From a virus (lineage: Duplodnaviria; Caudoviricetes), in the IMG/VR virus record IMGVR_UViG_3300020577_011395, positions 65,046 through 129,045 of that record: 64,000 bases of DNA; one strand, given 5' to 3'. Under the pieces are notes generated by a model, which was not told the origin of the DNA, made no database searches, and worked only from the letters and a program-made list of their open reading frames with translations. Numbering within the stretch: position 1 is the first letter of the stretch; each line of letters begins with the position of its first letter. Positions 995-46,864 of this stretch are shown here, piece by piece. The position numbers and the translations under genes are program-made.

Positions 995-1581
995 TAAAAG
1001 AGATTGTTAAAAGTATAGAAGAGTCTATTGCAGTAAAACAACAAATATTAAAGTCGGAAGAAACTCTTGATTTAATCCGTGCAGCTGCTATAACTATTAC
1101 GCATGCCTTCCAAGACGAAGGAAAGGTTTTGTTCTGTGGCAATGGCGGTTCGGCTGCTGATGCTCAGCACTTATCAGCAGAGCTTTCTGGCAGGTTTAAG
1201 TTTGATAGAGAGCCGCTAGATGCTGAAGCTCTACATGTAAATTCGTCTTATATAACTGCGGTTGCAAATGACTATGGCTATGAACAAATATTTTCAAGGC
1301 TAATAGCGGCCAAGGCAAAAAGAGGAGATGTATTAGTCGGCCTCAGCACATCAGGTGAATCAAAAAACATAATAAAAGCTTTTGAAAAAGCTAGAGAAAT
1401 AAAAAATATTAGCTGTATTTCTTTAACTGGTGCGGGAGAAAGCACTTTGGACAAACTATCTCACATTACAATAAAAGTACCTTCTACTGACACAGCTAGG
1501 ATACAAGAAGCGCATATAATGATTGGCCATATAATTTGTGGTCTTGTGGAACAAAGCATCTATGGCAAAGCTACAATTTAA
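991..1581 (+). CDS. gmhA: D-sedoheptulose-7-phosphate isomerase (SIS domain)
   Basis: CGNGGSAADAQH, ANDYGY, STSGES, TARIQEAH motifs; ATGA overlap with fcl. Confidence 0.93.
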   Translation: MIKEIVKSIEESIAVKQQILKSEETLDLIRAAAITITHAFQDEGKVLFCGNGGSAADAQHLSAELSGRFKFDREPLDAEALHVNSSYITAVANDYGYEQIFSRLIAAKAKRGDVLVGLSTSGESKNIIKAFEKAREIKNISCISLTGAGESTLDKLSHITIKVPSTDTARIQEAHIMIGHIICGLVEQSIYGKATI

Positions 1582-2323
1582 AGATATAATTGATATTCAT
1601 GCTGGAAAAACTGCTTTAGTGGTGGCAAATGGACCTAGCACAAAACCATTATTAAAACATATCGCATCTTGTTCTAAACAAAAAGATAAATATGTTATTT
1701 TTGTTTGTAACGAAATTGATGAAATGTTAGAAAACGTAAATTTAAAAATAGGAGTAGATATAATACCTGATTACTGGGTTATCGCAAGTACTACTCTAAC
1801 GGTTGGTTCTAGATTTAATAACTTTAATAAATTAACTAACGGTGCGCTTTTATTTGCAGATAGTGCGGACATGACGAGAAATCCAGAAGAGTTATTAAAT
1901 ATTGACTTCTTACCATATGACCAAAGACATTTTGATAATAAGCCTTGCCCAATTCCACCAGAATTAGGATGCTGTGAAAAGTGTAAAGACGTAATACCAC
2001 ATAGAATTACTATTCAAGAAGAATTAAAAAACTATTGTGGAGCAAATTCGCATTATGGCACAGCTTCTACTGTTGCTTTACACATGCTTGCATTTTCTAT
2101 TTTAATGGGTTGTAAAAAGTCTTATATTTCTGGAGTGGACTTAGACTATTCGCTTGGCTATTTTGATAGGAAAACCACGAATCCTGATGGCTTTAAGTTA
2201 TGGATCTCAGACATACTTTCTGACTTTAAAACAATTAATGAAAGTGCTAAGCTAAAAGGAGTGGAAGTCATAAATTTAAGCCCATTTTCCCCATTAAAGG
2301 ATATATTTAAAACAAATGTTTAA
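1562..2323 (+). CDS. Maf/DUF115/GT42(CstII)-like glycosyltransferase, putative CMP-nonulosonate transferase
   Basis: ALVVANGPS, VIFVCNE and STVALHMLAFSILMGCKKSYISGVDL match the GNGPS..CN..A.A..LG.K.IYL.G.D pattern of CstII/Maf. Start moved to ATG 1562. Confidence 0.7.
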   Translation: MAKLQFKDIIDIHAGKTALVVANGPSTKPLLKHIASCSKQKDKYVIFVCNEIDEMLENVNLKIGVDIIPDYWVIASTTLTVGSRFNNFNKLTNGALLFADSADMTRNPEELLNIDFLPYDQRHFDNKPCPIPPELGCCEKCKDVIPHRITIQEELKNYCGANSHYGTASTVALHMLAFSILMGCKKSYISGVDLDYSLGYFDRKTTNPDGFKLWISDILSDFKTINESAKLKGVEVINLSPFSPLKDIFKTNV

Positions 2324-2969
2324 TTGGCATAAAACACAAAATGATGAGTATTTAAAACTTTGCTCACTTCGCCTAGGAAGTGGAGAACCGTTGCATTGGG
2401 TAATGCATTTTGTAAATATTATAAATAATTTTTTGTACAATGATAAAAGTATTAGTGGTTTAACGATCAATGATATAGGCTGCAATGTTGGCCATTTTTT
2501 AAGAGGTGTTGATAAAATAAAAGTTAATACTGTTTATAATGGTTATGATATTTCAAGTGTATATTTAGATATAGCAAAACAACATTTCAAAAAAGATTGT
2601 TTTTATTTACTTGATGCTTCTGAAGAAGTACCAAAAGAATGTGATGTAACCGTTATATCCGCTACAATGGAACACGTATTAAATGATAAAACATTTTTGA
2701 AGAATATACTAAATTCTTCAAAAAAGATGGTAATAATACGTACATTTCTAGGGGATTCAATATTAGAAGAAAAATGTTGCAAAGACGGCGCAGAATATCC
2801 TTATGTGATAAAACAATTTACAAAAGAATATATTGAATCATTAATAGACAAAAATATTTGGAAAATTAAATATTTAGAAGATATAGCAACAAATGGACGT
2901 GCTAAGAAAGTATGCGATAAAGAAGATATCATTAGAACTCAAAAAGTTATAATATTGGAAAAAATATGA
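2316..2969 (+). CDS. Class I SAM-dependent methyltransferase
   Basis: INDIGCNVG motif I, GYDIS acidic motif II, ATMEHV. Confidence 0.8.
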   Translation: MFNWHKTQNDEYLKLCSLRLGSGEPLHWVMHFVNIINNFLYNDKSISGLTINDIGCNVGHFLRGVDKIKVNTVYNGYDISSVYLDIAKQHFKKDCFYLLDASEEVPKECDVTVISATMEHVLNDKTFLKNILNSSKKMVIIRTFLGDSILEEKCCKDGAEYPYVIKQFTKEYIESLIDKNIWKIKYLEDIATNGRAKKVCDKEDIIRTQKVIILEKI

Positions 2970-3883
2970 AATTAATTATTTTTATAAATAGCGCTGGCCC
3001 AAATGTTTCTTACGAAAATTTATTTGATACGATTAGTTCAATTTCTTCTAAATGCGGTATAGAAGATTATGGATTTTATTTTGTTGCTGAAAATGAAACA
3101 ATTGCAAATATGATTAATGAAATATTTTTAGTTTGCAATATACAAAATAAATTATTAGAACTAAAAATATCTAATGACTCATGGGCAAAAAACTTTAACT
3201 TATTCTTTAATTTATACAAAGAAAAAACAGAATATATAATTTATTCACATGATGATTTATATATAAAAACTGATAATTTCTTTATAAAAGCATTAAAAGA
3301 AATAGATGGCATAGATGAAGAATTGGGATGGATAACGTTCACAAGCGACGCCTATTACAGAAACTATGGTTTAGGAATAACCAATTCTGTTAGAGAAGGT
3401 TTTAGTCTTGACAGAGGAGGTTATCCTGGTATTTTTGAGTGCCACTCTATGAAAAACGGAGATAATTTAGACGCTCTAGACATGCCGCCATCGACAGTGA
3501 AATGTCATGCACCATTCCCGCATTTTGTTATGATTTCTTCTAAAACTTTAGAAAAAGTTGGTCCTTGCTCTGATTGGTCTAATTACACTCTTTTGATAGA
3601 TGAAGACTGGGGTTTGGAAGCCCTAAAGAAAAATCTGGTTAATATCTGGATCCCGGACATTGTTTATACCCATCCCTTACGCAAGGATAGCAGAAAAGAA
3701 ATGGGAGTACGATATCAGAATGAAGTTCACGCCAAGTTTAAAGAAAAGTGGGGTTGGAACTTTGATATTGGCGGTTATAGTGATTCCTTTGTAGAAGAAA
3801 TCTGTGAAAAATTTAAAGATACTAACATCCCTTTGACCAAAGGCAAGAATTCTTTTGACTGGCAATATCCGAGAAGAAAATAA
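2966..3883 (+). CDS. GT-A (GT2-like) glycosyltransferase
   Basis: YIIYSHDDL DxD-like motif, LEKVG, EDWGL, KFKEKW tail typical of GT2-like proteins. Confidence 0.65.
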   Translation: MKLIIFINSAGPNVSYENLFDTISSISSKCGIEDYGFYFVAENETIANMINEIFLVCNIQNKLLELKISNDSWAKNFNLFFNLYKEKTEYIIYSHDDLYIKTDNFFIKALKEIDGIDEELGWITFTSDAYYRNYGLGITNSVREGFSLDRGGYPGIFECHSMKNGDNLDALDMPPSTVKCHAPFPHFVMISSKTLEKVGPCSDWSNYTLLIDEDWGLEALKKNLVNIWIPDIVYTHPLRKDSRKEMGVRYQNEVHAKFKEKWGWNFDIGGYSDSFVEEICEKFKDTNIPLTKGKNSFDWQYPRRK

Positions 3884-4899
3884 TGAAAAAAGTTATATAT
3901 TTTGCACCAATTTGTGAATGGAACGATTTTGTAACATTTAATATGTATTTATCTAAAATAAGAAAAGACTATGAAATAATAGGAGTTGTAATACCTAGAA
4001 AGGCTATTTTCATAATAACAGAAGCAGATTTCTTTATTACGTTAGAAGATAAATATATGGTAGGTAGCGATTATCCGGAAACCTTAGAAAGAATTGGTGA
4101 TGTTCACGGAAACTTTGTGACCGATATTGGAGTTTTCCCAAAGCACGTAAGGAATACTGGCGTATTGTTTGAAATGGGTTACCAAGCTATAAAAATGAAT
4201 GATGAATGTTTTCCAGATTATGAAATAAAATTTTATGAGGCGGAAACAAATCTCTATAAGAAAAACTCTATAGAGATCTATAAAGAGCTATTTGCTAATT
4301 TAAAAACTTTTTTATCAAGTGGAAAGACAATTAAACCGACTAAAGAAGTTTTTGAAAGTATTGCTAACAAGTATCAAGGTTCCTTCAAAAAAGATATAAA
4401 GAATTATATTCTCTTGACAAGAAACTTCCAGAACAAAGCAGTAGATGAAAATACTATAAATCTCATTCCTAATTTACAACAAATAATAAAGAAAGTAACA
4501 GAGTCTGGCATAAATATAATAAATATAGGCTTTCCAGCACAAAAATATAATATAACCAATAAATTCTACCAAGAACTTAAATTTGAATCACTTACACAAG
4601 AAGAACTAGTTTGTTTAATGTATTTGGCTGATGGTGTGCTATTAAGTGGACGCTCTGGTGGTTTTGCTGCACATGTTATATCAAATGCTGATTTGTTTAT
4701 GCTTTACCCGGAATGGTCTAAAATAAGAGCAGATATAGACATTTCTATTTTTAATGATCGTACAAAACTAGTCGGGTCTACAGACCTGTGTAAGCATGTT
4801 AGCGACAACAATATACAAAAAATTATTTCTATACTTAAAACACACAAAAAAATAGCCATAAATGATTTTGCAGAGCCAAAAGAAATCTTTTATATTTAA
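3883..4899 (+). CDS. Hypothetical protein, possible GT-B (GT9-like) glycosyltransferase
   Basis: C-terminal LMYLADGVLLSGRSGGFAAH resembles the GT-B SG..H motif; lies inside the sugar island. Confidence 0.4.
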   Translation: MKKVIYFAPICEWNDFVTFNMYLSKIRKDYEIIGVVIPRKAIFIITEADFFITLEDKYMVGSDYPETLERIGDVHGNFVTDIGVFPKHVRNTGVLFEMGYQAIKMNDECFPDYEIKFYEAETNLYKKNSIEIYKELFANLKTFLSSGKTIKPTKEVFESIANKYQGSFKKDIKNYILLTRNFQNKAVDENTINLIPNLQQIIKKVTESGINIINIGFPAQKYNITNKFYQELKFESLTQEELVCLMYLADGVLLSGRSGGFAAHVISNADLFMLYPEWSKIRADIDISIFNDRTKLVGSTDLCKHVSDNNIQKIISILKTHKKIAINDFAEPKEIFYI

Positions 4900-4912
4900 C
4901 GAGTTAATAAAA

Positions 4913-5578
4913 ATGAATTGTCTTATTTTAGCCCGTGGTGGAAGTATTGGAGTTCCTAAGAAGAATATCAAGCTATTAAACGGTAAGCCATTAATCGCTT
5001 ATCCAATAGAATCAGCTAAAAAAACTAAATATATATCTAAAGTTTATGTTTCAACAGATTCTGACGAGATTGCAGAAATAGCAAAGAGTTACGGCGCTGA
5101 AATTATAAAACGCCCAAGTGAACTAGCCCAGAGTAATTCTTTAGATGTTGACGCCTTTAAACACGCTGTTAAGTTCTTGGGGGAAGAAGACATTGTTCAG
5201 CTTAGAGCTACAACTCCCATAATAAATCCAATGGTTTTAGATAAAGCTATAGAATATTTTCTAGAAAACCCAGAGGCCACTTCTCTTAGATCTGCACAAG
5301 AATTCTCAGAATCAGTCTATAAATTCTTTAAGAAAGATGGACCATATTGGACCGGTTTCTTTCCTGAACTGCAGGGTGAATACTATAATAGGCCGCGCCA
5401 ATCATTCCCTGCATCTTATTTACCGAATGGTTATATCGATATTGTTAGACCAAAAATTTTCATGTATAAAGATACCTTTCATGGTGATAAAATGCTTTCA
5501 TTCGTAACCGAGCCAGTCATAGAAATCGACACACCAGAAGATTTTGCTAGACTTGAACAAAGGATGAAAAATGTATAA
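4913..5578 (+). CDS. neuA: Acylneuraminate (nonulosonate) cytidylyltransferase
   Basis: ILARGGSIGVPKKNI, GKPLI, VSTDS, RPSELA, QLRATTP, RQ..P..Y.PNG, EIDTPEDF. Start moved to ATG 4913. Confidence 0.9.
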   Translation: MNCLILARGGSIGVPKKNIKLLNGKPLIAYPIESAKKTKYISKVYVSTDSDEIAEIAKSYGAEIIKRPSELAQSNSLDVDAFKHAVKFLGEEDIVQLRATTPIINPMVLDKAIEYFLENPEATSLRSAQEFSESVYKFFKKDGPYWTGFFPELQGEYYNRPRQSFPASYLPNGYIDIVRPKIFMYKDTFHGDKMLSFVTEPVIEIDTPEDFARLEQRMKNV

Positions 5579-6902
5579 ATTTGCAACTACACCACAAAAA
5601 GCCGAAAAAAAGTATACCAAACACGTAACCATACATACTGATATTCCATCTCCAACAACAATAAAGATTTTAGAACAAACTGCTAAAAATGAACCAAGTT
5701 CGATGAACCATCAATTACCAATTGTATGGGATAAAGCAATTGATTATAATGTGTTTGATAATGCTGGCAACAAGTGGATAGATTTCACCTCAACCATATT
5801 TGTTGCTAATGTTGGTCACTCAAATCCAAAAGTGTGCGCAGCTATTAAAAAAATGGTAGATAAGCAACTATTAAATGCTTATTATTACCCAACACAAATA
5901 AAAGCAGATTTTGTTTCAAAACTGCTATCCGTATCTCCATCCAATATTGATAAGGCATTTTTGCTGTCAACCGGATCTGAGGCTGTTGAAGCAGCAGTTA
6001 AAATGGCCATTAAAAACAAAAGTAAGGTTGGGAAGAGAGTCATTGTTTCTTTTGATGGATCATTCCACGGTAAGACTATGGGATCTCAGATGGTCGGAGG
6101 CAAACCACCAGAGAAAGAATGGCTAAGATACCAACATCCAGATATTGTCAATGTTCCATTCCCTTACCCGTGGACTTCTTTTAGTTTCCAAGACACACTC
6201 CAAGACCTAGCTGACCGGGGTATTAGTCTCCGAGATATCGCTGGATTTGTTACTGAGTCTTACCAAGGATGGTGCGCTTGTTTCTTACCAAAACAATACG
6301 TAAAAGATATGAGAGAATGGTGTGATCAAAATAATTCTTTATTGATATTTGATGAAGTTCAATCTGGTTTTGGTAGAACAGGGAAGTTCTTCGCATTTGA
6401 GCACTATGATGTTAAAGCAGATATCATTTGTTGTGGGAAAGGTATTTCTTCAAGCCTACCATTATCCGCTGTCCTATCCAGAGAAGAACTGTTCGAACCA
6501 GAACAAAGTTTTAACAGTACTCATGGAGGCAATCCTGTGGCCTGTGCAGCCTCTCTGGCGTCTTTGGAAGAGATCATTGATAGAAACTTAGTCAAAGAAT
6601 CGGAACGCAAGGGAAAGCTTCTAGAGATGCTTTTAAACGAATGGCAGAAAGAGTCACCAGACACAATTAAAAAAGTATTCTGTACTGGCTTACTCGCAAG
6701 CGTATTTATTGAGCCAACCGTTGGTGACAAAAACGAATTCGTTGATAGGTTAATAGAAGAAGCAATGAGGAGAGGTCTTATTTCTGTTAGGACAGCAAGC
6801 GGAACTTTAAAAATTGGACCTCCACTTACAATACCATATGATGCCTTGATTGAAGGCGTAGAGATTCTTAAAGAGTCTAAAAAGGCTTTAGAAAATGTTT
6901 AG
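5571..6902 (+). CDS. Class III PLP-dependent aminotransferase
   Basis: GNKWIDF, STGSEAVE, SFHGKT, IFDEVQSGFGRTG, GKG (PLP lysine), STHGGNP, IGPPL. Confidence 0.92.
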   Translation: MYKFATTPQKAEKKYTKHVTIHTDIPSPTTIKILEQTAKNEPSSMNHQLPIVWDKAIDYNVFDNAGNKWIDFTSTIFVANVGHSNPKVCAAIKKMVDKQLLNAYYYPTQIKADFVSKLLSVSPSNIDKAFLLSTGSEAVEAAVKMAIKNKSKVGKRVIVSFDGSFHGKTMGSQMVGGKPPEKEWLRYQHPDIVNVPFPYPWTSFSFQDTLQDLADRGISLRDIAGFVTESYQGWCACFLPKQYVKDMREWCDQNNSLLIFDEVQSGFGRTGKFFAFEHYDVKADIICCGKGISSSLPLSAVLSREELFEPEQSFNSTHGGNPVACAASLASLEEIIDRNLVKESERKGKLLEMLLNEWQKESPDTIKKVFCTGLLASVFIEPTVGDKNEFVDRLIEEAMRRGLISVRTASGTLKIGPPLTIPYDALIEGVEILKESKKALENV

Positions 6903-7311
6903 ACATGTTGGTATCGTGGTTGAAGATCTAGAACAACAATTAAGATTTTATACGGGTTTATTGGGTTTAGAAGTATATTATGACAAAGTAGAGCAAGGCC
7001 CTTTTTTAGAAACAATATTGGGAATTTATAACGTTAAGCCTCGAATATATAAACTTGGTAAAAATGGCAAAATTGTGGTAGAACTTTTACATTTTGGTAC
7101 AAATACACTCGTAGGAACACCAAAAAACTTAGTGGAAAGAGGACTAACCCACTTTGCCATAACAGTAAAAAATATAGATGATCTATATGCAAAACTCTTT
7201 AAAGAAGTTCAGTTTGTTAGCGCCCCTGCAATGTCTGATACTGGCAAGCATATAGTGTGTTTTTGTAGAGACTTTGAAGGAAATTACATAGAATTGGTTG
7301 AGGAATTATGA
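6895..7311 (+). CDS. VOC/glyoxalase family protein
   Basis: HVGIVV..L....FY...LGL, VELL, HFAITV, DFEGNYIELVE metal-binding pattern. Confidence 0.88.
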   Translation: MFRHVGIVVEDLEQQLRFYTGLLGLEVYYDKVEQGPFLETILGIYNVKPRIYKLGKNGKIVVELLHFGTNTLVGTPKNLVERGLTHFAITVKNIDDLYAKLFKEVQFVSAPAMSDTGKHIVCFCRDFEGNYIELVEEL

Positions 7312-8081
7312 ATATAGGCATTGTGCAAGGCAGGCTATCCGCTCCAGTAGACGGAAAGATCCAAGAATTTCCAACTAAAACCTGGAAAGAAGAATTTGCT
7401 ATAAAAAAAGAGCTTGGTTTAACCCATATTGAGTGGGTTATTACTAAAGATAGCCTTATCGATAATCCATTATTTACAGAGGATTTATCCAATTATCCGA
7501 TAAGCTCAGTGTGCTGCGACCATATAATAGATGAAAGAATCCACAAGTATTCTTTCTTGGAAGAGAACCTAGAGCCTATCTGTAAAAAGTTAGAAGAGAA
7601 TGAGATAAGTTTCCTCAGTATCCCATTACTAGAGCAAAGCAATATGGATGATGATGCGAAGAGAAAAGCATTTATCAAAAATATAAACAAACTCCACAGG
7701 AAACATAAACATCTCGATTTTATATTCGAAACAGAGCTAAGCGCAGAAAAAACAGCAGAAATTGTTAATTCAAATGAGGCTTTTTTTGTTACTTACGATA
7801 CTGGAAACATTACTTCTTACCTAAAATCACACGATTCTTACATCACTCATTTAAGAGAAAAAATAGTCAACGTGCACATAAAAGATAGGACTTTTGATGG
7901 CAAAACAAAAGAATTTATGACCGGGGACACTGATTTTAAAAAGATCTTTAACCTTTTATCTTTGGTAAAGTATAATGGCTTATATACACTTCAATTGGCC
8001 AGAGGAACTACTGGCGAAGAAAAAGAGTATATTAAGGCTAACTTAGAAAAGGTTAAAAATGCAATCAAACAATCTGTTTAG
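7308..8081 (+). CDS. Sugar-phosphate isomerase/epimerase (xylose-isomerase-like TIM barrel, hexulose-5-P 3-epimerase-like)
   Basis: IGIVQGRLS, HIEW, FETE, YDTGN, VHIKDR, GDTDF. Confidence 0.82.
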   Translation: MNIGIVQGRLSAPVDGKIQEFPTKTWKEEFAIKKELGLTHIEWVITKDSLIDNPLFTEDLSNYPISSVCCDHIIDERIHKYSFLEENLEPICKKLEENEISFLSIPLLEQSNMDDDAKRKAFIKNINKLHRKHKHLDFIFETELSAEKTAEIVNSNEAFFVTYDTGNITSYLKSHDSYITHLREKIVNVHIKDRTFDGKTKEFMTGDTDFKKIFNLLSLVKYNGLYTLQLARGTTGEEKEYIKANLEKVKNAIKQSV

Positions 8082-8883: not shown

Positions 8884-8894
8884 AGGAAAACATA

Positions 8895-38865: not shown

Positions 38866-39867
38866 ATGTCAAACTATTATAGATATATCGTTAAAGGGGC
38901 TGAAAGAGAAAGCTTCAGTACAGTAAACGTATCACAGTCTAGTGTCGATGCTTATGGAACAGTTTATACAAAAAATTATCCACTAACATCTTCAATTTCT
39001 GTTCTTTTTTTCCCAGATCAAAGTAATATAGTCTCCAATCAGTATGGCAACCCATCTAGATTAAGATTAAAAACTTTTAAATCGCTTTTAACTAAGTATC
39101 GAAAATATAGTGAGTATTTTCAATACTCTTCTAGTGCAGTTGATTATGATACAAGTGACATTTGTTTAATAAATATACCTTCAATATTTTATGGAAGTTC
39201 TATAGATAAGGGAAGTGTTGAACTTTCAATTTATGCAAATGGAATTCTGCTAGCTAAAGCACAAGATATTTCAAAAAACGGTGAATTAATACAAACAACC
39301 GGCTCCGCTTCTATACAAAATGATAGAAGTGTTGTCGGTACTGTTTTATATGATGAAGGCTTAATAGCACTTTTTGATAGAACACCATTAGCTGGGTATC
39401 AAGAAGATTTTTATGCTTACTCTACTCCGTCAGCTGTGAATGATTATCCAAGATGGTCTAATTATGGACTTTCTGCCAATATTTTAACAGGGTCTGTTCT
39501 AACAACTAGCTGTGATTTGCAATTTGATGGTATAAATAAAATACCACAGTTAACACTTTTAGCACACGCTAATAAAACAGAGCTAAATAATAGTACTAAC
39601 TATACCTATACATCGATTTTAGGCTCATCTTCGCTAACATATAATAGTTCTAGTTATAGATATATTGAAAATCCATCTGTAGAAATAAAAAATGTAGTAA
39701 AAAGTAGATATTTAACCCCTACTGCAAGTTTTGCTAAAGAAACTTATATAACTAAAATACTATTATACGATGAAAACAAAAATATTATTGGAATTGCAAA
39801 AATTGCTAAACCAATAAGAAAGACAGAAGATAGAGACTTTACTTTTAAACTTAAGATTGATTTATAA
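38866..39867 (+). CDS. Putative virion protein, paralog of 37481..38614
   Basis: Shared IDKGS/IKKGT, G.V.YDEG/G.IFYQAG, N.STN.TY/NYSSNPTY and YIT..LYDE...IG.AK..KP..K....K.K.D motifs. Confidence 0.65.
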   Translation: MSNYYRYIVKGAERESFSTVNVSQSSVDAYGTVYTKNYPLTSSISVLFFPDQSNIVSNQYGNPSRLRLKTFKSLLTKYRKYSEYFQYSSSAVDYDTSDICLINIPSIFYGSSIDKGSVELSIYANGILLAKAQDISKNGELIQTTGSASIQNDRSVVGTVLYDEGLIALFDRTPLAGYQEDFYAYSTPSAVNDYPRWSNYGLSANILTGSVLTTSCDLQFDGINKIPQLTLLAHANKTELNNSTNYTYTSILGSSSLTYNSSSYRYIENPSVEIKNVVKSRYLTPTASFAKETYITKILLYDENKNIIGIAKIAKPIRKTEDRDFTFKLKIDL

Positions 39868-39897: not shown

Positions 39898-40431
39898 ATG
39901 GGAACAAATACATTAATAATTAAAGATGGTAATTCTGTTGCATCTGCGCTATCTATGATTAGTTCAAGCACTGGGCTAATACCTGAGCATTCCATAACTG
40001 GAACAGTTAATACTGTAGTCAGTGGCACTACAAGCGTTTCGCTTGTACCAATTGCAAGTTACACAAATAAAAGAGTAGCATTTCCTAATAATGCAGATCT
40101 AGCTGTTACGTCTGGCTGGATTTATAGCAACAATTCTGGTAGTTTTCTTGCTTGTACTTCTAGTCTGGCTAGAAAGAGCTTAATTATATTTAACAAATCT
40201 TATGATCTTCCTGCTTATATATTGGTTGGTGCGTCTAATACTTCTGGTAGTACCCAATATGGATTTACTATATTGTCAACAGGTTCTTCCCCAGAAACTT
40301 ACAGCTTTATTTTAGAAGCAAGTGGCACATATTTCGGAGATAGTTCCGTAAGCTCTTTAGCACATGCAGTATTTATTCCTTCTGCTTCTTCAGCCATTAA
40401 TTCACAAATAGCAGTAACAGAGGTAATATAA
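39898..40431 (+). CDS. S/T-rich beta-sandwich virion protein
   Basis: RKSLIIFN..YILVG..YSFIL..G.Y pattern; own promoter motif and GAGGT RBS. Confidence 0.6.
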   Translation: MGTNTLIIKDGNSVASALSMISSSTGLIPEHSITGTVNTVVSGTTSVSLVPIASYTNKRVAFPNNADLAVTSGWIYSNNSGSFLACTSSLARKSLIIFNKSYDLPAYILVGASNTSGSTQYGFTILSTGSSPETYSFILEASGTYFGDSSVSSLAHAVFIPSASSAINSQIAVTEVI

Positions 40432-40959
40432 ATGCCTAATATAGTATATCCAAATAGAACTGCACAAGGCTCAATTTATAATAAGGCCCACAATATTTAT
40501 CTTTCTGGTGTTAACGGTGCATCCGAATTTACAATAATTACTGGTTCTTCTACGCCCTATGTTATTAGTTACAACGCAGAAAATCTTTATAAAAATTATT
40601 CTTCACTTATTTGTTTTGTAACCTCTGGGTCAAACAGCCTTCAGAGAACCGCATCTTTAACACTGCCAACGGCTTCTTCTTATATATCAGTTGGAGAACG
40701 ACATTTTCCTGGAACTACTGTTATTAGAAACGATCTTGATTCAACCACACAACTAAAGTTGTCTTCTAGTACTGGCCAGTATTGGTTTGTAACTGGAGGC
40801 ATGCCAAACGATCAAATTCTTGACCCAACCAATAAATCTCAATTCTTTATCATGCCATCTTCTTCTATCGCTGAAATGATTTATTTTGATTTTTTTGATA
40901 CTAGCGGTGGTACAAATTATTGGCTAGTTTTAAGTGTTAATAAAATTGGATCTTTATAA
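40432..40959 (+). CDS. S/T-rich putative tail-associated protein
   Basis: LTLPTAS...W-terminal beta pattern; tightly coupled to the upstream gene. Confidence 0.55.
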   Translation: MPNIVYPNRTAQGSIYNKAHNIYLSGVNGASEFTIITGSSTPYVISYNAENLYKNYSSLICFVTSGSNSLQRTASLTLPTASSYISVGERHFPGTTVIRNDLDSTTQLKLSSSTGQYWFVTGGMPNDQILDPTNKSQFFIMPSSSIAEMIYFDFFDTSGGTNYWLVLSVNKIGSL

Positions 40960-42022: not shown

Positions 42023-44464
42023 ATGCAAAGTAAAATAATAGCAGATTTAGTAGTCACTGGCTCTATTAATAGCACTGATTTTATTAGTGGTGCGCTTTTT
42101 TATGGGGATGGGTCTGGGCTTTATAACCTCAATGTTAGTGGAAGCGGTGTAACTTCTAACGAGGTTACCGGAGCTATATCGGGGGCATTATTATCTTACG
42201 TTACAACAGCAGAAGTATCAAGCAGCTTCGTCACACCAGGGCAAGTAACTTCTTCTTATCCTACTAGAACAGAAGTAAGTGGTACGTTACTAGGGTATTC
42301 AGCTCTTTCGGAGCTAAGTCGTTCTTTCGTTGACAATACAGAATTAACTGCTTCTATCGCAAATATTCCGGTTAGATTAGAGGTTTCGGGAGCTGTTACA
42401 GGCGCTTTATTGCCTTATGCCACACTAACTGGAATATCAGGCACTTTTGCAGCTAGAACAGAAGTAAGCGGTGTATTACTTTCATACGCAATTATTTCAG
42501 AGTTAAGTAGATCATTTATTGATAATAATGAGTTAACTTCATCTATTTCTGGATTTCCAACTAGATTAGAAGTGTCTGGAGCATTAACTGGTGCTATATC
42601 CGCGTATGCAACGCTGACTGGCGTTTCTGGCACATTTGCTACATTGGCGACTTTGACAAGTTCATACACAACTTTGTCAGAACTAAGTAGGTCATTTGTT
42701 GACAACACAGAACTAACTTCTGCCATAACTAATTTTCCAGTTCGTTTAGAGGTTTCTGGAGCTGTCACTGGAGCTTTAACTCCTTTTGCTACATTAACTG
42801 GTGTGTCTGGAACATTTGCTACGACAGCAACTTTAACTAGTTCTTACCCGACAAGACAAGAAGTTACTGCAGCATTAACGCCATACGCTACCCTAACAGG
42901 AGTTTCGGGAACTTTTGCTACACTAGCAACACTAACATCATCTTATGCTAGATTAAGTGAAGTAAGCCGCTCTTTTGTTGATAATGCTGAATTAACTTCT
43001 GCTATATCTAATTTTCCTGTCAGATTAGAAGTATCTGGTGCAATAAGTAATTCTTTATTGTCTTATGCGACTTTAAGTGGAATTTCCGCAAGCTTTGTAA
43101 CACCTTCACAAATAACATCTTCTTATCCAACAAGAACAGAGACATCTGGAGCTATTAGTTCTTCGTTAACAGCTTCAAATATTACAAATTTTACTTCTGA
43201 CGTTCGTAGACAGATTAGTGGTGTTGGTAGTATTAGCTACAATCCAAGTACAGGTATAATTTCTAGTAGTGCAACAGGTGGTGGGATTTCAGGTGCAGAA
43301 GTATCAGCATCATTTCCAACTAGAACTGAAGTAACTGGTGTTCTTCTACAATATGTTTCAATTTCAGAAGTTAGTAGGTCTTTTGTAGATAATGCAGAAT
43401 TAACTTCTTCAATTTCTAGTTTTCCAGCTAGATTGGAAGTTAGTGGAGCTATCACTAGTTCACTTCTAAATTACGCTACATTAACTGGCGTTTCCGGGAC
43501 GTTTGCTACATTAGCGACACTAACAAGTTCGTACGCTGTGCTAAGTGAGCTTAGTAGATCATTCATTGATAATATAGAACTTACTTCCGCCATATCCAAC
43601 TATCCTGTCAGATTAGAGGTTTCAGGAGCTATTACTGGCGCACTACTACCATATGCTACTTTAACAGGAGTATCTGGCACATTTGCTACTCTAGCAACGT
43701 TAACATCATCATATACTACTTTATCAGAATTAAGTAGGTCATTTGTTGACAACACAGAACTAACTTCTGCTATATCTAATTTTCCTGTTCGTTTAGAAAT
43801 ATCAGGCGCTTTAACACAATACGCAACTTTAAGTGGTGTTTCCGGGACATTTGCTACAATGGCAACTTTGACCGGTTCTTATCCAACAAGACAAGAAGTC
43901 ACAGGGGGCGTTAATCAAGTTTTACAATTTTATCCAACATTAGTACAAGTTTCAGCAAGTTTTATACCATGGGTTGCTCCTTCTACCAGTGGTAATGTTT
44001 TAACTAGCAATGGAATAAATTGGATTTCTGCTCCAAGCACTTCTGGTTCTGGAGGATCTGGAGATATAACAGCTGTTATAGCTGGCAATAATTTAATTGG
44101 CGGCTCAACTTCTGGTGATGCAACACTAGCTTTAACTTCTTCAATAACGGGCGGTTTAACAAATATAAGCGGGCTAACAACATTAACGTCTGTTTCTGGG
44201 TCTTTTATAGCATTAACTGGTTCTAATATAAGTGCTTCTATAGGTATAACCGGTTCTTTTAGCGGCAGTGGACTATTTATAAATGCGTTAACGGCTTCGA
44301 ATATAAATAACTTTACTTCCGATGTTCGCAAACAAATTAGTGGTATTGGAGCTATTAGTTACGATGCAAATACTGGTATAATTTCAGCTAGCGCTGGTTC
44401 GACTAGCGGTTCAAATGGCTTATCAGAGATTGAAGTAATGGCAAGAATAGTTTGGAGATTTTAA
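42023..44464 (+). CDS. Repeat-rich tail fibre-like protein
   Basis: Modular 10-17 aa repeats (ATLTGVSGTF, ATLATLTSSY, LSELSRSF, VDNxELTS, PxRLEVSGA); C-terminal GDITAV.AG..L.GG.TSGD motif. Confidence 0.72.
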   Translation: MQSKIIADLVVTGSINSTDFISGALFYGDGSGLYNLNVSGSGVTSNEVTGAISGALLSYVTTAEVSSSFVTPGQVTSSYPTRTEVSGTLLGYSALSELSRSFVDNTELTASIANIPVRLEVSGAVTGALLPYATLTGISGTFAARTEVSGVLLSYAIISELSRSFIDNNELTSSISGFPTRLEVSGALTGAISAYATLTGVSGTFATLATLTSSYTTLSELSRSFVDNTELTSAITNFPVRLEVSGAVTGALTPFATLTGVSGTFATTATLTSSYPTRQEVTAALTPYATLTGVSGTFATLATLTSSYARLSEVSRSFVDNAELTSAISNFPVRLEVSGAISNSLLSYATLSGISASFVTPSQITSSYPTRTETSGAISSSLTASNITNFTSDVRRQISGVGSISYNPSTGIISSSATGGGISGAEVSASFPTRTEVTGVLLQYVSISEVSRSFVDNAELTSSISSFPARLEVSGAITSSLLNYATLTGVSGTFATLATLTSSYAVLSELSRSFIDNIELTSAISNYPVRLEVSGAITGALLPYATLTGVSGTFATLATLTSSYTTLSELSRSFVDNTELTSAISNFPVRLEISGALTQYATLSGVSGTFATMATLTGSYPTRQEVTGGVNQVLQFYPTLVQVSASFIPWVAPSTSGNVLTSNGINWISAPSTSGSGGSGDITAVIAGNNLIGGSTSGDATLALTSSITGGLTNISGLTTLTSVSGSFIALTGSNISASIGITGSFSGSGLFINALTASNINNFTSDVRKQISGIGAISYDANTGIISASAGSTSGSNGLSEIEVMARIVWRF
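42260..43910 (+). repeat. Intragenic modular repeat array
   Basis: About seven copies of SRSF(V/I)DNxELT; 40-bp exact match between 42684-42723 and 43731-43770. Confidence 0.9.
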
Positions 44465-44468: not shown

Positions 44469-45659
44469 ATGATAATTTCTGGTTCTGCACAAGTAGTTAA
44501 ACTTACTACAACTAGTGCTGCTGTTGTGGATTATAATATAGAGTATGTTGATTATACTCCTAACAGCACATTTTTTCCAAATACGGAATTTGGTAGAATA
44601 ACGAGCGCAGCAACCACACTGATTTTAACTGGGTCAACTGGTTTAAGGAAAGTTAGATCTGTTTCTGTTGTAAACACTAGTACAACTGCTAGCCAAACCG
44701 TAACATTTTTAAGAGAAAACGCTGGATCTCAATATAATTTGTTATCTCCAGTGGTTTTAAGGCCATTAGAAAGTCTTGTAATAGACCAAAACGATACATT
44801 ATCTATTTTAGATTCATCAGGTAGAACAAAAACTAAAAAAGAATTTGATATGGCTATTAGTGGTACAACTTATAATTTTAGAAAACAAGGATCTGGTGCT
44901 GAAATTGTTGGTTCTGGATCTACATATTTTGCATCTGCTGGATATCCTGGCGCATGGTTTCCAGGAACACCTGGATTAGCGGGTAGAGCTTGTTCAGGTT
45001 CAAGTCCATTAGATTCTGGTAGTATCCAAATACCTAATTATGCTGGACAATACTTACAAAGTTTTACAGCTGCATCAACAGTTTTAAACCCATTTGAGGT
45101 TATTGATGTACTATGGACAAATTCTGGTATTGTTCATACTACAACAACTTTACAAACAATTTCTTCAAGTACCTTTCCTGCAAGAGATTTATATGGTTCT
45201 AATAGTGGCTATGGATTGCAAGTAGGTCTTTTAATTACTACTGCTACAACAAATGCTACTGCTAATACGACAGCAGTTTTACAATATACAAATCAAGATG
45301 GTGTACCGAATAGATGGGCTTCTGTTTCTTCATCAAACTCACTTTCATTTATACCTGCAACAGCCGTAGCGGGGTTCATGGTTCCTTTTAATTTACAAAC
45401 TGGGGACGAAGGCATCAGATCAATACAGGGGATTACACTTGGAACGTCTTTAGTCGCGGGTACTTCTTCTTTGGTTGTATATAAACCATTACTTAGTGTT
45501 GGATGCTCAGTTATTAATACGGCGTTTACAACAAAAGTTGAACCTCCGGGAATAAAACTCTGGGGCAATGAAGTGTTGTTGATCTGGAGTCCAGTAGTAA
45601 CTGTAACTAACGCAACAACTGTTTATGGAAATTTAATTATAAATACATATTCTTCTTAA
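44469..45659 (+). CDS. Tail fibre-associated protein, paralog A (396 aa)
   Basis: Colinear with the downstream gene (YFA..GYPG.W.PGTPG, NRWASVSSSNSLSFIPAT, TTKVEPPGIKLWG). Confidence 0.65.
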   Translation: MIISGSAQVVKLTTTSAAVVDYNIEYVDYTPNSTFFPNTEFGRITSAATTLILTGSTGLRKVRSVSVVNTSTTASQTVTFLRENAGSQYNLLSPVVLRPLESLVIDQNDTLSILDSSGRTKTKKEFDMAISGTTYNFRKQGSGAEIVGSGSTYFASAGYPGAWFPGTPGLAGRACSGSSPLDSGSIQIPNYAGQYLQSFTAASTVLNPFEVIDVLWTNSGIVHTTTTLQTISSSTFPARDLYGSNSGYGLQVGLLITTATTNATANTTAVLQYTNQDGVPNRWASVSSSNSLSFIPATAVAGFMVPFNLQTGDEGIRSIQGITLGTSLVAGTSSLVVYKPLLSVGCSVINTAFTTKVEPPGIKLWGNEVLLIWSPVVTVTNATTVYGNLIINTYSS

Positions 45660-45673
45660 AGCAGAGGCCATCA

Positions 45674-46864
45674 GTGATATTATCAGGTGCTTGTTCATTA
45701 CAATTAACAACTACAAAAACTTCTATTATTGATTATAATGTGGAATACGTAGACTATTCTCCAGGTTCTTCTTTCACGCCAAATTGTACATTTGGCCAGC
45801 TTAATACTGCTGGTACAACAACAATTTTATCTTCTTCTAATGCTAATTTTTTAAGAAAAATTAAAGGGTTCTCGATAATCAATTCAGACCTCTCTGCAAG
45901 CCAAAATATAACACTTACAAAACAAGTAGGCGGAACAGAATACAAAATATTAAATTCTGTTTCTTTAAAATCATTAGAATCCATATATTGTGACCAAAAC
46001 GATAATATAACAATTTTAGATAAGTCTGGTCTATCTAAAATTAATAAAGAACTAAATTGTTCAGTTAGCTCATCAAATTATCAAATTAGAAAGGTTTTTC
46101 CAATCCAAGACTTTGCGAATTCAGGATCTGCTTATTTTGCTGCGTCTGGTTATCCTGGGCCATGGCTACCAGGCACACCTGGAATTAGCGGAAGAAACTG
46201 TTACGGCTCTAGTGTTTACGACACGGGAAGCATCAGAATACCTACAAATGGTAGCCAGTATATTAGTGCTTTTAGTGCCGTTTCAGCTGTTGCCAACTAC
46301 TATGAAATTATAGATGCTATATGGGTTAATACTGGTATTAGCGTTACAACTACAACATTACAAACAATTTCTTCAAGTCAGTTTCCACCAAGAGACCTAA
46401 ACGGAAGTTCTAATGGGAATGGTTATAAAATTGGTCTTTATGTCACAACTGCTACAACAAATGCGAATGGTATAACGAATACTGTTGTACAATATACAAA
46501 TGAACTAGGCACACCAAACAGATGGGCTTCTGTCTCTTCATCAAACTCACTTAGTTTTATCCCTGCAACTTCTCTTGCTGGCACTTTTATACCTTTTAAA
46601 CTTCAACAAGACGATTCAGGTGTACGCTCTATTGAAGGAATTTATCTTAATACTTCACTTGGAGGCGGCGCGGTATCATTAATGGTTTACAAGCCATTAA
46701 TTTCTGCTCAGTGTTCGTTAGCTTCTACTCTTTCTACAACAAAAGTTGAGCCACCAGGAATAAAACTTTGGGGTGATGAAGCATTGCTGATTTGGAGCCC
46801 AATAGTTACAGCCACTGCTATATCTACTGTATATGCAAATTTAATTGTGAATACTTATGTTTAA
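45674..46864 (+). CDS. Tail fibre-associated protein, paralog B (396 aa)
   Basis: Tandem paralog of 44469..45659; GTG start after GAGG. Confidence 0.65.
   Translation: MILSGACSLQLTTTKTSIIDYNVEYVDYSPGSSFTPNCTFGQLNTAGTTTILSSSNANFLRKIKGFSIINSDLSASQNITLTKQVGGTEYKILNSVSLKSLESIYCDQNDNITILDKSGLSKINKELNCSVSSSNYQIRKVFPIQDFANSGSAYFAASGYPGPWLPGTPGISGRNCYGSSVYDTGSIRIPTNGSQYISAFSAVSAVANYYEIIDAIWVNTGISVTTTTLQTISSSQFPPRDLNGSSNGNGYKIGLYVTTATTNANGITNTVVQYTNELGTPNRWASVSSSNSLSFIPATSLAGTFIPFKLQQDDSGVRSIEGIYLNTSLGGGAVSLMVYKPLISAQCSLASTLSTTKVEPPGIKLWGDEALLIWSPIVTATAISTVYANLIVNTYV

Follow-up and report, generated by a model that had tools for sequence, protein, structure and literature searches.

A glycan-building island with an accessory nonulosonate module and a lineage-conserved Ser/Thr motif in presumed tail/baseplate proteins of an uncultured large marine phage

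Introduction

For sugar gene clusters of cyanophages and jumbo phages, the default reading in the literature is remodelling of the host surface (PMC7824862). Glycosylation of the virion by phage-encoded enzymes has a precedent in mycobacteriophages (Freeman et al. 2023, described in PMC12619734). The window analyzed here, i.e., the whole stretch of 64,000 nt, belongs to an uncultured large marine phage and holds the 3' half of a glycan-building island. P22's GtrABC module has annotated flippase, bactoprenol-transferase, and translocase functions; in contrast, no integral membrane protein is predicted in this island. A preliminary description of this DNA had proposed that the phage decorates its own virion with nonulosonate (NulO) at Ser/Thr-rich motifs. 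The genes for NulO synthesis, activation, and transfer, the glycosyltransferases (GTs), and the non-random motif on which it was built all stand, but the tie between motif and NulO does not.

Results

The island is about 21 kb long and comprises about 26 genes, including at least eight GTs. It begins 10.8 kb upstream of the window (G000:C1:54199), where further genes encode three GT4-type enzymes, a GT2, Gmd, DegT, an RmlD-like reductase, and split TPP enzymes; the Gmd-like gene ends at window positions 52-55, preceding the Fcl-like gene (Table 1). The locus is fixed in the immuto-like marine T4-type lineage, with a PD-(D/E)XK nuclease on one side and Zn-ribbon/late-sigma genes on the other. 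In this phage, its variable part includes GDP-6-deoxyhexose, amino-sugar, and heptose genes, GTs, and the NulO module, which is made up of a short NeuB, a HAD-like protein, tailoring enzymes, and a CMP-synthetase and is accompanied by a small sialyltransferase-fold enzyme (1562-2323) and a methyltransferase whose gene overlaps it by 8 nt. Directly 3' of the island come the gp55-like sigma gene, an M15 endolysin, and gp25, in line with the earlier description of the island as immediately preceding the late sigma and tail module. The sigma factor is 51-64% identical to those beside the cassette in loci L020-L030 and 58% identical to that of relative G006.

Table 1. Features of the window, in order of position, with the evidence for each.
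Position	Strand	Feature	Evidence
56..994	+	Fcl-like NAD-dependent epimerase/reductase, GDP-6-deoxyhexose branch	PF01370 1.1e-48; NF047922 GDP-L-fucose synthase 9e-74, below cut-off
991..1581	+	GmhA-type sedoheptulose-7-P isomerase, heptose branch	SIS_2 3e-24; TIGR00441 gmhA 5.5e-55, below cut-off
1538..2323	+	Small GT42/Maf-core-like transferase	PF01973 (MptE-like) 39.5 bits vs cut-off 34.6
2316..2969	+	Class I methyltransferase	Weak Methyltransf_12/23/11 matches, only Methyltransf_11 above cut-off
2966..3883	+	GT2-like GT-A glycosyltransferase (lead)	Atlas features 0.98; structure TM ~0.7 to PF00535 clusters
3883..4899	+	GT9-like (heptosyltransferase-type) GT-B glycosyltransferase (lead)	Atlas features 0.96; structure TM 0.63 to PF01075-bearing clusters
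4862..5578	+	CMP-sugar synthetase, NeuA/PseF/KdsB type	PF02348 1.9e-26, 93.7 bits
5571..8883	+	Four overlapping genes: class III aminotransferase, VOC/glyoxalase, xylose-isomerase-like TIM barrel, SDR (PRK09186 type)	Pfam, NCBIfam
8877..9728	+	Short NeuB-family synthase, 283 aa	PF03102 5.2e-61, 206.6 bits
9725..10021	+	98-aa protein, last island gene	phrog_1238 1.2e-21 (named "phosphoheptose isomerase"); phrog_415 polynucleotide kinase
10791..11468	+	gp55-like late sigma factor, opens first conserved gene block past island	phrog_234 6.3e-5
22409..30655	+	2748-aa presumed baseplate/tail protein, largest motif excess	57 vs 21 expected (z 8.1)
37481..38614	+	377-aa presumed virion protein, non-repetitive, motif-rich, lineage-conserved	14 vs 5.1 expected (z 4.3)
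38866..39867	+	333-aa neighbour of 37481	Window z 2.6
39898..40959	+	Pair of small proteins rich in S/T (177 and 175 aa)	Motif density 5.6 and 4.6 per 100 aa (z 2.0 and 3.5)
42023..44464	+	813-aa fibre-like protein, about nine ~60-aa super-repeats	Autocorrelation peak at lag 60
44469..46864	+	Two S/T-rich proteins of 396 aa each, with weak or absent excess relative to composition	z 2.3 and 0.8

Pfam and NCBIfam profiles, together with AF2 models and Foldseek, bear out the earlier claim that the island encodes NeuB, CMP activation, and a sialyltransferase-fold transferase. The best NCBIfam match of the CMP-sugar synthetase is TIGR03584 PseF (4.8e-34, below cut-off), and the NeuB-family synthase scores 219 bits against TIGR03569, below the cut-off of 399.65, over model positions 2-278 of 329. 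The four genes at 5571..8883, which accompany NeuB and the transferase in most of 29 viral loci, would, judging from their sequences, form the sugar-tailoring part of the NulO module. The 98-aa protein, which has no Pfam match and copies of which (40-68% identical) occur in most cassette loci, can be read as HAD-type phosphatase-like. The two further GTs put forward in the preliminary description are GT2-like and GT9-like by Atlas features and structure and are leads only: neither product matched Pfam, nor did the GT2-like one match NCBIfam or PHROG.

The true start of the small transferase is likely the ATG at 1562 (253 aa), as in the database copy P0001; depending on the start chosen (1562 or 1538), the protein is 253-261 aa long. 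The best Foldseek matches of its AF2 model (pLDDT 92) are CstII/Cst-I, the Pasteurella (Pm) sialyltransferase, Maf 5mu5, and MjHPPK. By profile it is nearer to GT42 enzymes than to Maf, matching CstII with an E-value of 0.007 and with the GNGPS and D-x-Y...Y motifs in common. In each of 29 viral loci, the gene lies next to NeuB and/or a cytidylyltransferase gene, and its family (230-300 aa) includes fusions to a cytidylyltransferase (P0079), to methyltransferase domains (P0100 and P0108), and to DUF268 (P0132). Given this fold, the CstII motifs, the neighborhood, and the fusions to cytidylyltransferase and methyltransferase-type domains, the enzyme is predicted to be CMP-nonulosonate-dependent. 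A Maf chain has 632-666 aa, whereas the phage enzyme is the bare catalytic core without the Maf flanking parts. No acceptor-binding domain occurs among the fusion partners of the family, and a search for longer relatives found none, which is weak evidence. To our knowledge, no consensus sequon is known for Maf.

Ten presumed virion proteins, so labelled from gene position only and named here by start position, had been flagged as rich in [S/T]-[G/A/S]-[S/T] triplets. Pfam gave no match for ten of the motif-rich or virion-labelled proteins, and those compared with PHROGs received no named function. The described divide is real, with 2.1-5.6 triplets per 100 aa in each flagged protein versus at most 0.7 in primase, SbcCD, terminase, 13934, 31505, and 34309. 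Against composition shuffles, the pooled count is 176 versus 87.8 expected (2-fold, z 10.2), so composition is insufficient to explain it. The hydrophobic-flanked version, phi-[ST][GAS][ST]-phi, is seen 59 times versus 9.8 expected (6-fold, z 16.6; z 9.5 without the repeat protein 42023). Since [ST][ST] pairs occur about as often as expected and [ST]-polar-[ST] is under-represented, the excess is not plain S/T clustering. Taken singly, 22409, 37481, and 40432 have a strong triplet excess; in 20979, 38866, 39898, 42023, and 44469 it is nominal (p 0.016-0.04), and in 45674 and 61409 it does not reach significance.

For the hydrophobic-flanked motif, 22409 has 35 copies versus 6.9 expected (z 11.5) and 42023 has 37 versus 9.6 (z 9.8). 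The latter stem from its super-repeat; no tandem repeat is present at the DNA level, and no homologue of 42023 was found in the relatives' loci or in GenBank phages. The 37481 family, with homologues on 159 viral contigs, has conserved motif columns at residues 27, 32, 59, and 321, and orthologues of 38866 are motif-rich in all relatives (triplet z 2.2-6.9, hydrophobic version 3.0-9.8). The motif is a real, specific, lineage-conserved feature of presumed tail/baseplate proteins.

The chances are about even that this feature is purely structural, i.e., a phi-[S/T]-G-[S/T]-phi signature of strand-turn-strand elements or subunit interfaces in a fibre and baseplate architecture specific to the lineage, with no GT involved, which would be compatible with either a phage-protein or a host-envelope acceptor. 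Several sites in 37481 keep a nearly invariant context among orthologues of about 50% identity (fully invariant at T27-G28 and S59-S61), its most conserved motif-bearing segments have low pLDDT in the monomer model in spite of this conservation, as interface segments often do, and the motifs of 42023 belong to a regular repeat. The Ser/Thr residues of the 37481 family are no more conserved within motifs than elsewhere (0.58 vs 0.53, p 0.24), which also speaks against the motif as a glycosylation site. Nevertheless, T4 gp34-37 (long tail fibres) and P22 gp9 (beta-helix tailspike), similar in S+T content, show no excess, the low-confidence model of 37481 spreads its motifs over coil, strand, and helix alike, and no known fold was matched to 37481 that would account for them.

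An adjacent GT4 pair heads the locus throughout the lineage, and the genes after it differ from phage to phage. The pair was found in 10/10 relatives. The cassette-free relatives G009 and G006 keep the order PhoH, PD-(D/E)XK, GT4a (51-57% identity), GT4b (40-47%), and this order recurs in the cultured Flavobacterium phage immuto (31-32% identity). Every relative examined has at least one GT4 gene; the marine relatives and immuto carry two side by side. In contrast, NeuB is above cut-off in 6/19 long relatives and the GT42-like gene is present in 1/19; the NulO module is thus accessory and confined to a minority of the lineage.

The expected co-occurrence of motif enrichment with NeuB/GT42-like genes did not hold. 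In seven genomes at least 90% complete and without either gene, orthologues of 37481 and 38866 are enriched to an equal or greater degree (z 3.2-6.9 for the triplet, 3.1-9.8 for the hydrophobic version), and about half of the motif instances lie in shared alignment columns occupied in 7/7 of these genomes. Immuto likewise has neither NeuB nor the GT42-like gene, yet a motif excess is present. Because enrichment is kept in relatives without sialic-acid-like genes, the proposed link between NulO and motif fails. The GT4-bearing RM378 shows no motif excess in the proteins tested; GT4 pair and motif co-occur in one lineage only, and thus constitute a single phylogenetic observation.

Discussion

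The proposal that a Maf-like enzyme, in the way Maf modifies flagellin, O-links nonulosonate straight to Ser/Thr of these triplets on exposed virion proteins is largely refuted by this comparison of sequences, and we consider it very unlikely. It had in its favor the PF01973 domain, the structural similarity to Maf 5mu5, a complete CMP-NulO supply encoded beside the transferase, a strongly non-random motif, and the presumed presence of enzyme, CMP-sugar, and virion proteins together in the cytoplasm. These points are outweighed by the same enrichment, in the same columns, in relatives lacking the genes, by the GT42-like profile of an enzyme with neither the remaining Maf parts nor an acceptor-binding fusion partner, and by the scarcity of the module.

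DNA as the acceptor, modified against restriction, is more improbable still. T4-type phages do glucosylate hmC DNA, and multi-GT DNA glycan systems have been reported (Pyle et al. 2024, cited in PMC12619734). However, no ThyA (thymidylate-synthase)/dCMP-hydroxymethylase homologue was found in 11 records, among them this contig and nine complete relatives, and LC-MS of immuto DNA showed canonical dA, dC, and dT with fdPreQ1 replacing dG, with no glyco-nucleoside reported (bioRxiv 10.1101/2023.04.13.536721).

A tentative but serious alternative is that the island's sugars and cytoplasmic-face GTs rebuild a lipid-linked glycan of the host, or add a cap to it (LPS/O-antigen, capsule, or host protein O-glycan), which the host's own initiating transferase, flippase, and ligase would export, with the virion motif being unrelated and structural. 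The effect would be to block superinfection or to keep progeny from sticking to infected cells and debris. The island's content (GDP-sugar, heptose, NulO, and GT2/GT4/GT9-like genes) is typical of surface-polysaccharide loci, it differs between close relatives as O-antigen and capsule loci do, and the motif is independent of the NulO module. The nearest solved relatives of the small transferase are lipo-oligosaccharide (LOS) sialyltransferases of equal size (CstII, Cst-I, and the Pm enzyme), which, like enzymes of the type of the GT9-type lead, act on LOS and not on protein. GTs working on lipid-linked glycans at the cytoplasmic face also look soluble by sequence. This is, moreover, the standard interpretation cited above. 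Against it, the roughly 26 island proteins have at most one predicted membrane segment each, which leaves the island without a Wzx, Wzy, WaaL, or initiating transferase, even though assembling a new glycan with at least eight GTs would normally call for a flippase/polymerase or ABC exporter to match. The literature searched held no experimental demonstration for a lytic marine phage. Furthermore, among phages that probably infect different hosts, the GT4 pair shows the conservation of a core phage gene, which suggests a conserved, possibly phage-encoded, acceptor.

Since every relative examined keeps a GT4, a broader version of the original idea could still hold, in which the GT4 pair glycosylates the motif proteins and NulO is optional. 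We favor, at a probability of roughly 0.4, a glycan on phage proteins that the conserved GT4 pair would begin and to which the small enzyme may transfer CMP-activated nonulosonate as an optional outer cap. For the NulO module, a role in supplying this accessory cap fits best, and the cap would then probably be methylated. The motif would either mark the sites of the GT4 pair or be purely structural; it is not a NulO sequon. The acceptor, not DNA, would be a phage-made protein glycosylated in the cytoplasm, for which, with lower confidence, the tail/baseplate proteins seem the most plausible candidates.

A sugar island at a fixed locus

The 129-kb IMG/VR viral contig that supplies the window (its bases 65046-129045) is ~40% complete as estimated by CheckV, and the genes of the window all lie on the + strand at a GC content of ~33%. 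Judged by terminase, Microcystis phage Mel-JY01 and the Flavobacterium "immuto" phages come closest among cultured phages (~43% identity), and the window follows the immuto gene order, i.e., gp25 and baseplate wedge, then giant proteins and fibre-like proteins, then primase. The preliminary description placed an island with genes for NeuB, a CMP-sugar synthetase and a transferase upstream of the late sigma and tail module, and both the domain matches and the gene order bear this out. Most island genes in the window overlap end to end. On the 3' side, a 199-nt gap is followed by genes for a Zn-ribbon protein, a gp55-like sigma factor, an M15 endolysin and baseplate proteins. On the other side, the island reaches 10.8 kb further upstream of the window, where it is preceded by genes for PIN-PhoH, a metallopeptidase-like protein and a PD-(D/E)XK nuclease. 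The whole island spans ~21 kb and ~26 genes, with at least eight glycosyltransferases (GTs).

Genes of the sugar island, in the window and upstream of it
Feature	Position in window	Strand	Remark
Gmd, unknown protein, GT4a, GT4b, unknown protein, Glyco_trans_1_2 protein, GT2			upstream of the window, first part
Split TPP E1/transketolase-like pair, RmlD-like reductase, DegT, second Gmd-like gene			upstream of the window, remainder
Fcl-like reductase	56-994	+	
GmhA	991-1581	+	
PF01973 MptE-like protein (small transferase)	1538/1562-2323	+	
Methyltransferase	2316-2969	+	gene overlaps that of the small transferase
Protein without Pfam match	2966-3883	+	GT2-like by Atlas features and predicted structure (a lead)
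Protein without Pfam match	3883-4899	+	GT9-like by Atlas features and predicted structure (a lead)
CTP_transf_3 cytidylyltransferase	4862-5578	+	PF02348
Class III aminotransferase, VOC, xylose-isomerase-like TIM barrel, PRK09186-type SDR	5571-8883	+	
Short NeuB, 283 aa	8877-9728	+	PF03102
98-aa HAD-like protein	9725-10021	+	our own reading

Transmembrane prediction on all island proteins gave at most one hydrophobic 19-residue segment each, which indicates that the island encodes neither a flippase nor a polymerase, ligase or polyprenyl-phosphate transferase. Machinery for a lipid carrier, whether an initiating transferase, flippase, polymerase/ligase or Gtr-type protein, is thus absent from it, and the host could supply such machinery. 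A near-identity DNA search with the island matched no GenBank phage. The T4-type late promoter TATAAATA has 23 matches against 12 expected, and since nearly all are intragenic and without pattern relative to the island, they give no information on its timing. The split TPP pair upstream of the window (206 + 176 aa; L031:15770-16920, equal to G000:C1:60816-61966 of the parent record) stands beside the RmlD-like and DegT genes, which suggests a two-carbon branched or extended sugar.

The same locus was found in relatives. An adjacent pair of ~420-aa GT4 genes was present in all ten relatives examined, none of which was without a GT4 gene, and a GT2 gene in most. In the relatives G009 and G006 the order is PhoH, peptidase-like protein, PD-(D/E)XK nuclease, GT4a (51-57% identity), GT4b (40-47%) and a few variable genes, with the Zn-ribbon and sigma genes coming after these in G006. 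Immuto has the same order, with a GT4 pair 31-32% identical to that of the window phage, and next to the pair come GTs, aminotransferases, a methyltransferase and an epimerase particular to immuto. The shared order and differing contents mark the locus as a variable sugar island headed by a core GT4 pair. Both GT4 proteins retain the EGFG...E motif, and the third-best PDB match of GT4a is the chlorovirus GT B736L (3oy2, E 2.5e-5). The pair was also considered as an analogue of GtfA/GtfB (serine-rich-repeat glycosylation), and this was rejected, as the PDB matches are to generic GT4 enzymes and show no specific similarity.

NeuB and CMP-sugar synthetase

The NeuB domain is matched over its full length (PF03102, 206.6 bits). 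The protein falls below the equivalog cut-offs (TIGR03569, 219 vs 399.65 bits; TIGR03586, 155.6 vs 340.25 bits), and it covers positions 2-278 of the 329 in TIGR03569, so that the C-terminal part of the model is missing. With no match at the equivalog level to NeuB or PseI, the product sugar cannot be named. The cytidylyltransferase matches PF02348 with 93.7 bits, and its best NCBIfam model is PseF (117.9 bits, under the cut-off of 205.7). Two relatives carry a second NeuB-domain gene within a 505-511-aa open frame (G004:C1:12855-13514 and G017:C1:126757-127413), a length from which we take NeuB to be fused to another domain there; two NeuB-domain matches each occur in G007, G014 and G017.

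An apparently phage-borne family of small sialyltransferase-like proteins

The island transferase had been described as Maf/CstII-like. The predicted fold is of the sialyltransferase type and a PF01973 domain is present, and the multi-domain architecture of Maf is absent, the protein being only 261 aa long (253 from ATG 1562). PF01973 is matched at residues 7-99 with 39.5 bits against a cut-off of 34.6 (40.2 bits in the genome scan). Pfam gives this family only, at E up to 0.01, and thus no GT42 membership by sequence; NCBIfam, PHROGs and a single-sequence PDB search all gave no match. The AF2 model is confident (pLDDT 92, pTM 0.91), and its top ten Foldseek matches are exclusively CstII, Cst-I and the Pm sialyltransferase (E 1.6e-5 to 8e-5, probability 1.0, TM on query 0.40-0.46). 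Maf (5mu5) and the archaeal MptE HPPK also rank high, the overall TM range being 0.40-0.50 on query.

With the family profile, CstII and Cst-I come up at E ~0.007 through two motifs. The first is the N-terminal ANGPSLK, aligned to GNGPSLK of CstII; the second is G-V-D-L-x-Y...G-Y, aligned to G-I-D-F-Y...S-Y in the shared SG-x-D-x-Y...Y segment, whose two tyrosines contact the CMP phosphate in CstII. G32, S34, D201, Y204 and Y208 vary little or not at all in the phage family. The region of His188, the catalytic histidine of CstII, is an insertion in the HMMER alignment with no histidine aligned to it, and the nearly invariant H131 and H182 lie elsewhere.

The GT42 enzymes CstII/Cst-I and the Pasteurella LOS sialyltransferases (1ro7, 2p2v and 9c08) thus share with the phage enzyme a core of ~250-290 aa, the fold (Foldseek probability 1.0, TM 0.44-0.46), the (A/G)NGPSLK and LG-x-K-x-IY-x-SG-x-D-x-Y...Y segments, and a position beside NeuB and CMP-sugar synthetase genes, whereas identity is only 14-19% and no GT42/CST-I Pfam model is matched. 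With Maf the phage enzyme has the PF01973 domain in common (TM 0.50 on query to the central domain of 5mu5). In contrast to the Maf chain of 632-666 aa, with parts flanking the catalytic core, most members of the phage family have 230-300 aa (homologues of the window protein, 203-294 aa) and there is no flagellin context. No longer Maf-like relative was found among proteins of 458-2000 aa, which is weak evidence. Maf enzymes use CMP-Pse/Leg-type donors in the cytoplasm, and we know of no established Maf sequon of the [S/T]-[G/A/S]-[S/T] form. We conclude that the small transferase is a predicted CMP-nonulosonate transferase with a sialyltransferase fold and a GT42-like mode of work; it is neither a protein of Maf architecture nor a demonstrable member of the GT42 family.

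The family comprises 174 clusters at E <= 1e-30. A search with its profile found a NeuB and/or cytidylyltransferase homologue within a few kb in 29/29 viral loci, usually with SDR, TIM-barrel, HAD-like and Fcl-like genes as well, and in several of these loci the cassette again lies directly upstream of the late sigma gene. Among metagenomic members, P0079 is a natural fusion with a CTP_transf_3 cytidylyltransferase, and the fusion partners are class I methyltransferase domains in P0100 and P0108 (~1050 aa) and DUF268 in P0132. The three methyltransferase-type fusions mirror the overlapping methyltransferase gene of the window. Large parts of the two 1050-aa forms have no Pfam match.

Among ~185,000 species genomes, the sole "bacterial" match was L116 (NZMJ01000023.1, "MAG: Maricaulis sp. 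isolate IN14 8585"), a record of 12,710 bp and 34.6% GC in which the island recurs with the gene order of the window phage: GT, GT2, RmlD-like, DegT (68% identity), Gmd, GT42-like, NeuB, CMP-synthetase, aminotransferase, VOC, TIM and SDR. Maricaulis genomes are far more GC-rich, and from its composition and gene content this record is almost certainly phage DNA that was wrongly binned with a bacterial MAG. The scans run yielded no confirmed bacterial member, and the family appears, from these genome records, to be phage-borne. Every NCBI-sourced homologue is labelled "hypothetical protein".

A serine/threonine motif in tail proteins

Ten proteins, named here by the window start of their ORF and taken as virion proteins from gene position (20979, 22409, 37481, 38866, 39898, 40432, 42023, 44469, 45674 and 61409), had been flagged as rich in [ST][GAS][ST] triplets that are scarce elsewhere. 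Densities and shuffles agree with that observation: the flagged proteins contain 2.1-5.6 triplets per 100 residues, and the enzymes and proteins 13934, 31505 and 34309 at most 0.7. Against within-protein shuffles, as the preliminary description had proposed, the pooled count is 176 vs 87.8 expected (z 10.2), so that high S/T/G content explains about half of the density; the excess in 45674 and 61409 is individually not significant. [ST]G[ST] is 3.3-fold above expectation, and the triplet flanked by hydrophobic residues 6-fold (59 vs 9.8). The 37 hydrophobic motifs of protein 42023 trace back to a ~60-aa super-repeat present about nine times, and so they do not count as independent; without this protein the excess is still 4.3-fold (z 9.5). 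[ST][ST] is about as frequent as expected and [ST]-polar-[ST] less frequent. Eight large window proteins that were not flagged match the expectation (23 vs 24.0), and T4 gp34-37 and the P22 tailspike, with comparable S+T content, show no excess. The pattern is therefore real and specific, and not a generic fibre or beta-helix signature. T4 gp32 (L113) gave a triplet z of 5.1 from six motifs, the other T4 replication proteins tested showing no excess; gp32 presumably has a short Ser-rich tract near its C-terminus, and a single such tract may suffice to trigger the statistic.

Ten motif-rich proteins have no Pfam match, and their PHROGs matches are weak and to families without a known function. 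For 37481, the AF2 model reached a pLDDT of 61, and a wide VIA search (best Z 3.3) assigned no fold. Residues 1-65 and 296-328 of 37481 are the most conserved segments of its family, with many invariant residues, yet have pLDDT <50 in the AF2 monomer, which suggests that they may be ordered only once the baseplate or tail is assembled. The 251-nt "gap" between 37481 and 38866 (38615-38865) has an ATG directly after the stop codon and may hold a small ORF of <80 aa, below the 80-aa limit of the ORF listing. Besides its super-repeats, 42023 (42023-44464) contains a ~30-residue module (N-I-T/N-N-F-T-S-D-V-R-R/K-Q-I-S-G ... T-G-I-I-S) twice, at residues 386-416 and 759-789, so that both halves of the protein close with a copy, an arrangement reminiscent of a fibre in which a shaft-plus-end unit has been duplicated in tandem. 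A tblastn search with 42023 against GenBank phages gave no match, possibly because of low-complexity masking. Mel-JY01 (L032) encodes a 508-aa "structural protein" (z 5.2 for the triplet, 7.4 for the hydrophobic version) adjoining a 1226-aa "FkbM methyltransferase" with a GT4 domain (3065-4591 and 4750-8430).

The motif is independent of the nonulosonate module

The preliminary description had linked the two observations mechanistically, with the triplets as sequons for a nonulosonate, and the link would entail that motif enrichment accompanies the transferase. Homologues of 37481 occur on 159 viral contigs (~50% identity), and comparison was made on 19 long records with such homologues, nine of them at least 90% complete. 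NeuB exceeded the cut-off in 6/19 records (2/9 complete ones) and the GT42-like gene was found in 1/19 (0/9). In seven complete or near-complete genomes without NeuB or the GT42-like gene, the 37481 orthologues have z 3.2-5.6 for the triplet and 3.1-9.8 for its hydrophobic version, and the 38866 orthologues 2.2-6.9 and 3.4-9.8, which equal or exceed the window values. About half of the motif instances of the 37481 family fall in columns common to at least 60% of sequences; at residues 27, 32 and 59 the motif is present in all seven cassette-free genomes, and T27, G28 and S59-S61 are invariant across 33 sequences. Motif Ser/Thr are no more conserved in this family than other Ser/Thr. The cultured immuto also has no NeuB, and the excess in its annotated tail spikes is still stronger (gp101, 28 hydrophobic-flanked motifs vs 2.7 expected, z 15). 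Since enrichment is the same without NeuB and the GT42-like gene, the motif is independent of the nonulosonate module, and the reading of the triplets as nonulosonate sequons fails. A wider version, in which the GT4 pair would glycosylate the motif-bearing proteins, is neither favoured nor disfavoured by this comparison, as every relative carries a GT4 gene. The observations of the preliminary description are thus confirmed, and the mechanistic link between them is not.

Candidate acceptors

DNA is a very unlikely acceptor. Neither this contig nor nine complete relatives contain a homologue of ThyA or dCMP-hydroxymethylase, and published LC-MS data on immuto DNA show dA, dC and dT in canonical form and formyl-preQ1 in place of dG (10.1101/2023.04.13.536721); these two results rule against DNA as the glycan target.

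Of two remaining candidates, phage proteins are narrowly the likelier acceptor, with a probability of roughly 0.4. A phage-encoded, cytoplasmic acceptor is favoured because the island has at least eight GTs and no predicted membrane component, because the GT4 pair is retained in the manner of a core phage gene, because a lineage-specific motif is present, and because mycobacteriophages and giant viruses offer precedents. The co-occurrence of GT4 pair and motif counts as a single phylogenetic observation, coming from one lineage; RM378, with one GT4, has no motif excess in the proteins tested. That the island instead remodels the host envelope, acting on host lipid-linked glycans, is in our view only slightly less probable and a serious rival: the island resembles O-antigen and capsule loci in content and differs from strain to strain, the small transferase has its nearest likeness in LOS sialyltransferases, with which the GT9-type lead agrees, and this is the default reading in the literature (PMC7824862).

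Comparison with known systems

Mycobacteriophages are the established example of tailed phages that glycosylate their own virion proteins, and they do so with soluble phage-encoded GTs, a likeness to the present island (Freeman et al. 2023, Cell Host Microbe, via PMC12619734). By the account in PMC12619734, the glycans there sit at the C-termini of capsid and tail-tube subunits, unlike the internal motif, a candidate site at most, of the present lineage; a nonulosonate, a large sugar-nucleotide island or an internal motif do not figure in that account. Clusters resembling LPS or capsule loci in cyanophages and jumbo phages (Iyer et al. 2021, PMC7824862) likewise combine sugar-nucleotide enzymes with several GT families and vary between relatives; host surface polysaccharide remodelling was proposed for them, not shown, and sialic or nonulosonic acids go unmentioned. 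Unlike those clusters, the present island occupies a fixed locus, has a GT4 pair conserved across the lineage, and includes a nonulosonate module to which a family of small transferases is dedicated. O-antigen conversion by P22 GtrABC is also phage-encoded and modifies a glycan, but the P22 record lists a flippase-like GtrA, a bactoprenol glucosyltransferase GtrB and a translocase GtrC, whereas no island protein has more than one predicted transmembrane segment. Multi-gene machinery of chloroviruses and mimivirus builds glycans on virion proteins; these giant viruses have eukaryotic hosts, and the similarity to the island is of the generic GT4 kind, an analogy only.

Our literature search found no paper tying nonulosonate genes to phage virions or describing this system, and a marine phage proteomics paper does not report phage glycosylation. 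Large aquatic phages commonly carry sugar-gene clusters, whose targets have seldom been tested; to our knowledge, phage virion glycosylation has been shown in mycobacteriophages only. Host-surface remodelling, the usual reading of phage sugar clusters, is an assumption.

Phage sugar islands and phage virion glycosylation were each already known. What is new is, first, the architecture, in which a variable island without any predicted integral membrane protein stands at a fixed locus and is headed by a conserved GT4 pair; second, a mini-sialyltransferase family that serves the nonulosonate module and that neighbourhood and fusion tie to CMP-sugar synthesis and methylation; and third, a Ser/Thr motif of tail proteins that is statistically robust, conserved in the lineage and not seen in classical fibres or spikes. 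The "sialic-acid sequon" link, attractive as it is, was shown not to hold.

A fuller scheme, which we consider unlikely as a whole, is that the immuto-like marine phages of T4 type add glycans to the tail, baseplate and spike proteins they make, the GT4 pair starting the glycan and the variable island diversifying it per strain. The soluble GT4 pair would start O-glycans in the cytoplasm on Ser/Thr of phi-[S/T]-G-[S/T]-phi (phi, hydrophobic residue) in these proteins, and the hypervariable island downstream would give each strain a different outer glycan, which in the window phage might include a methylated nonulosonate added by the phage-specific mini-sialyltransferase. As both locus and motif are also present in a cultured phage-host pair (immuto on Flavobacterium strain LMO8), the question of a glycan coat on marine phages is testable. 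If the scheme were true, these phages would bear a variable virion glycocalyx, comparable to the O-antigen diversity of bacteria.
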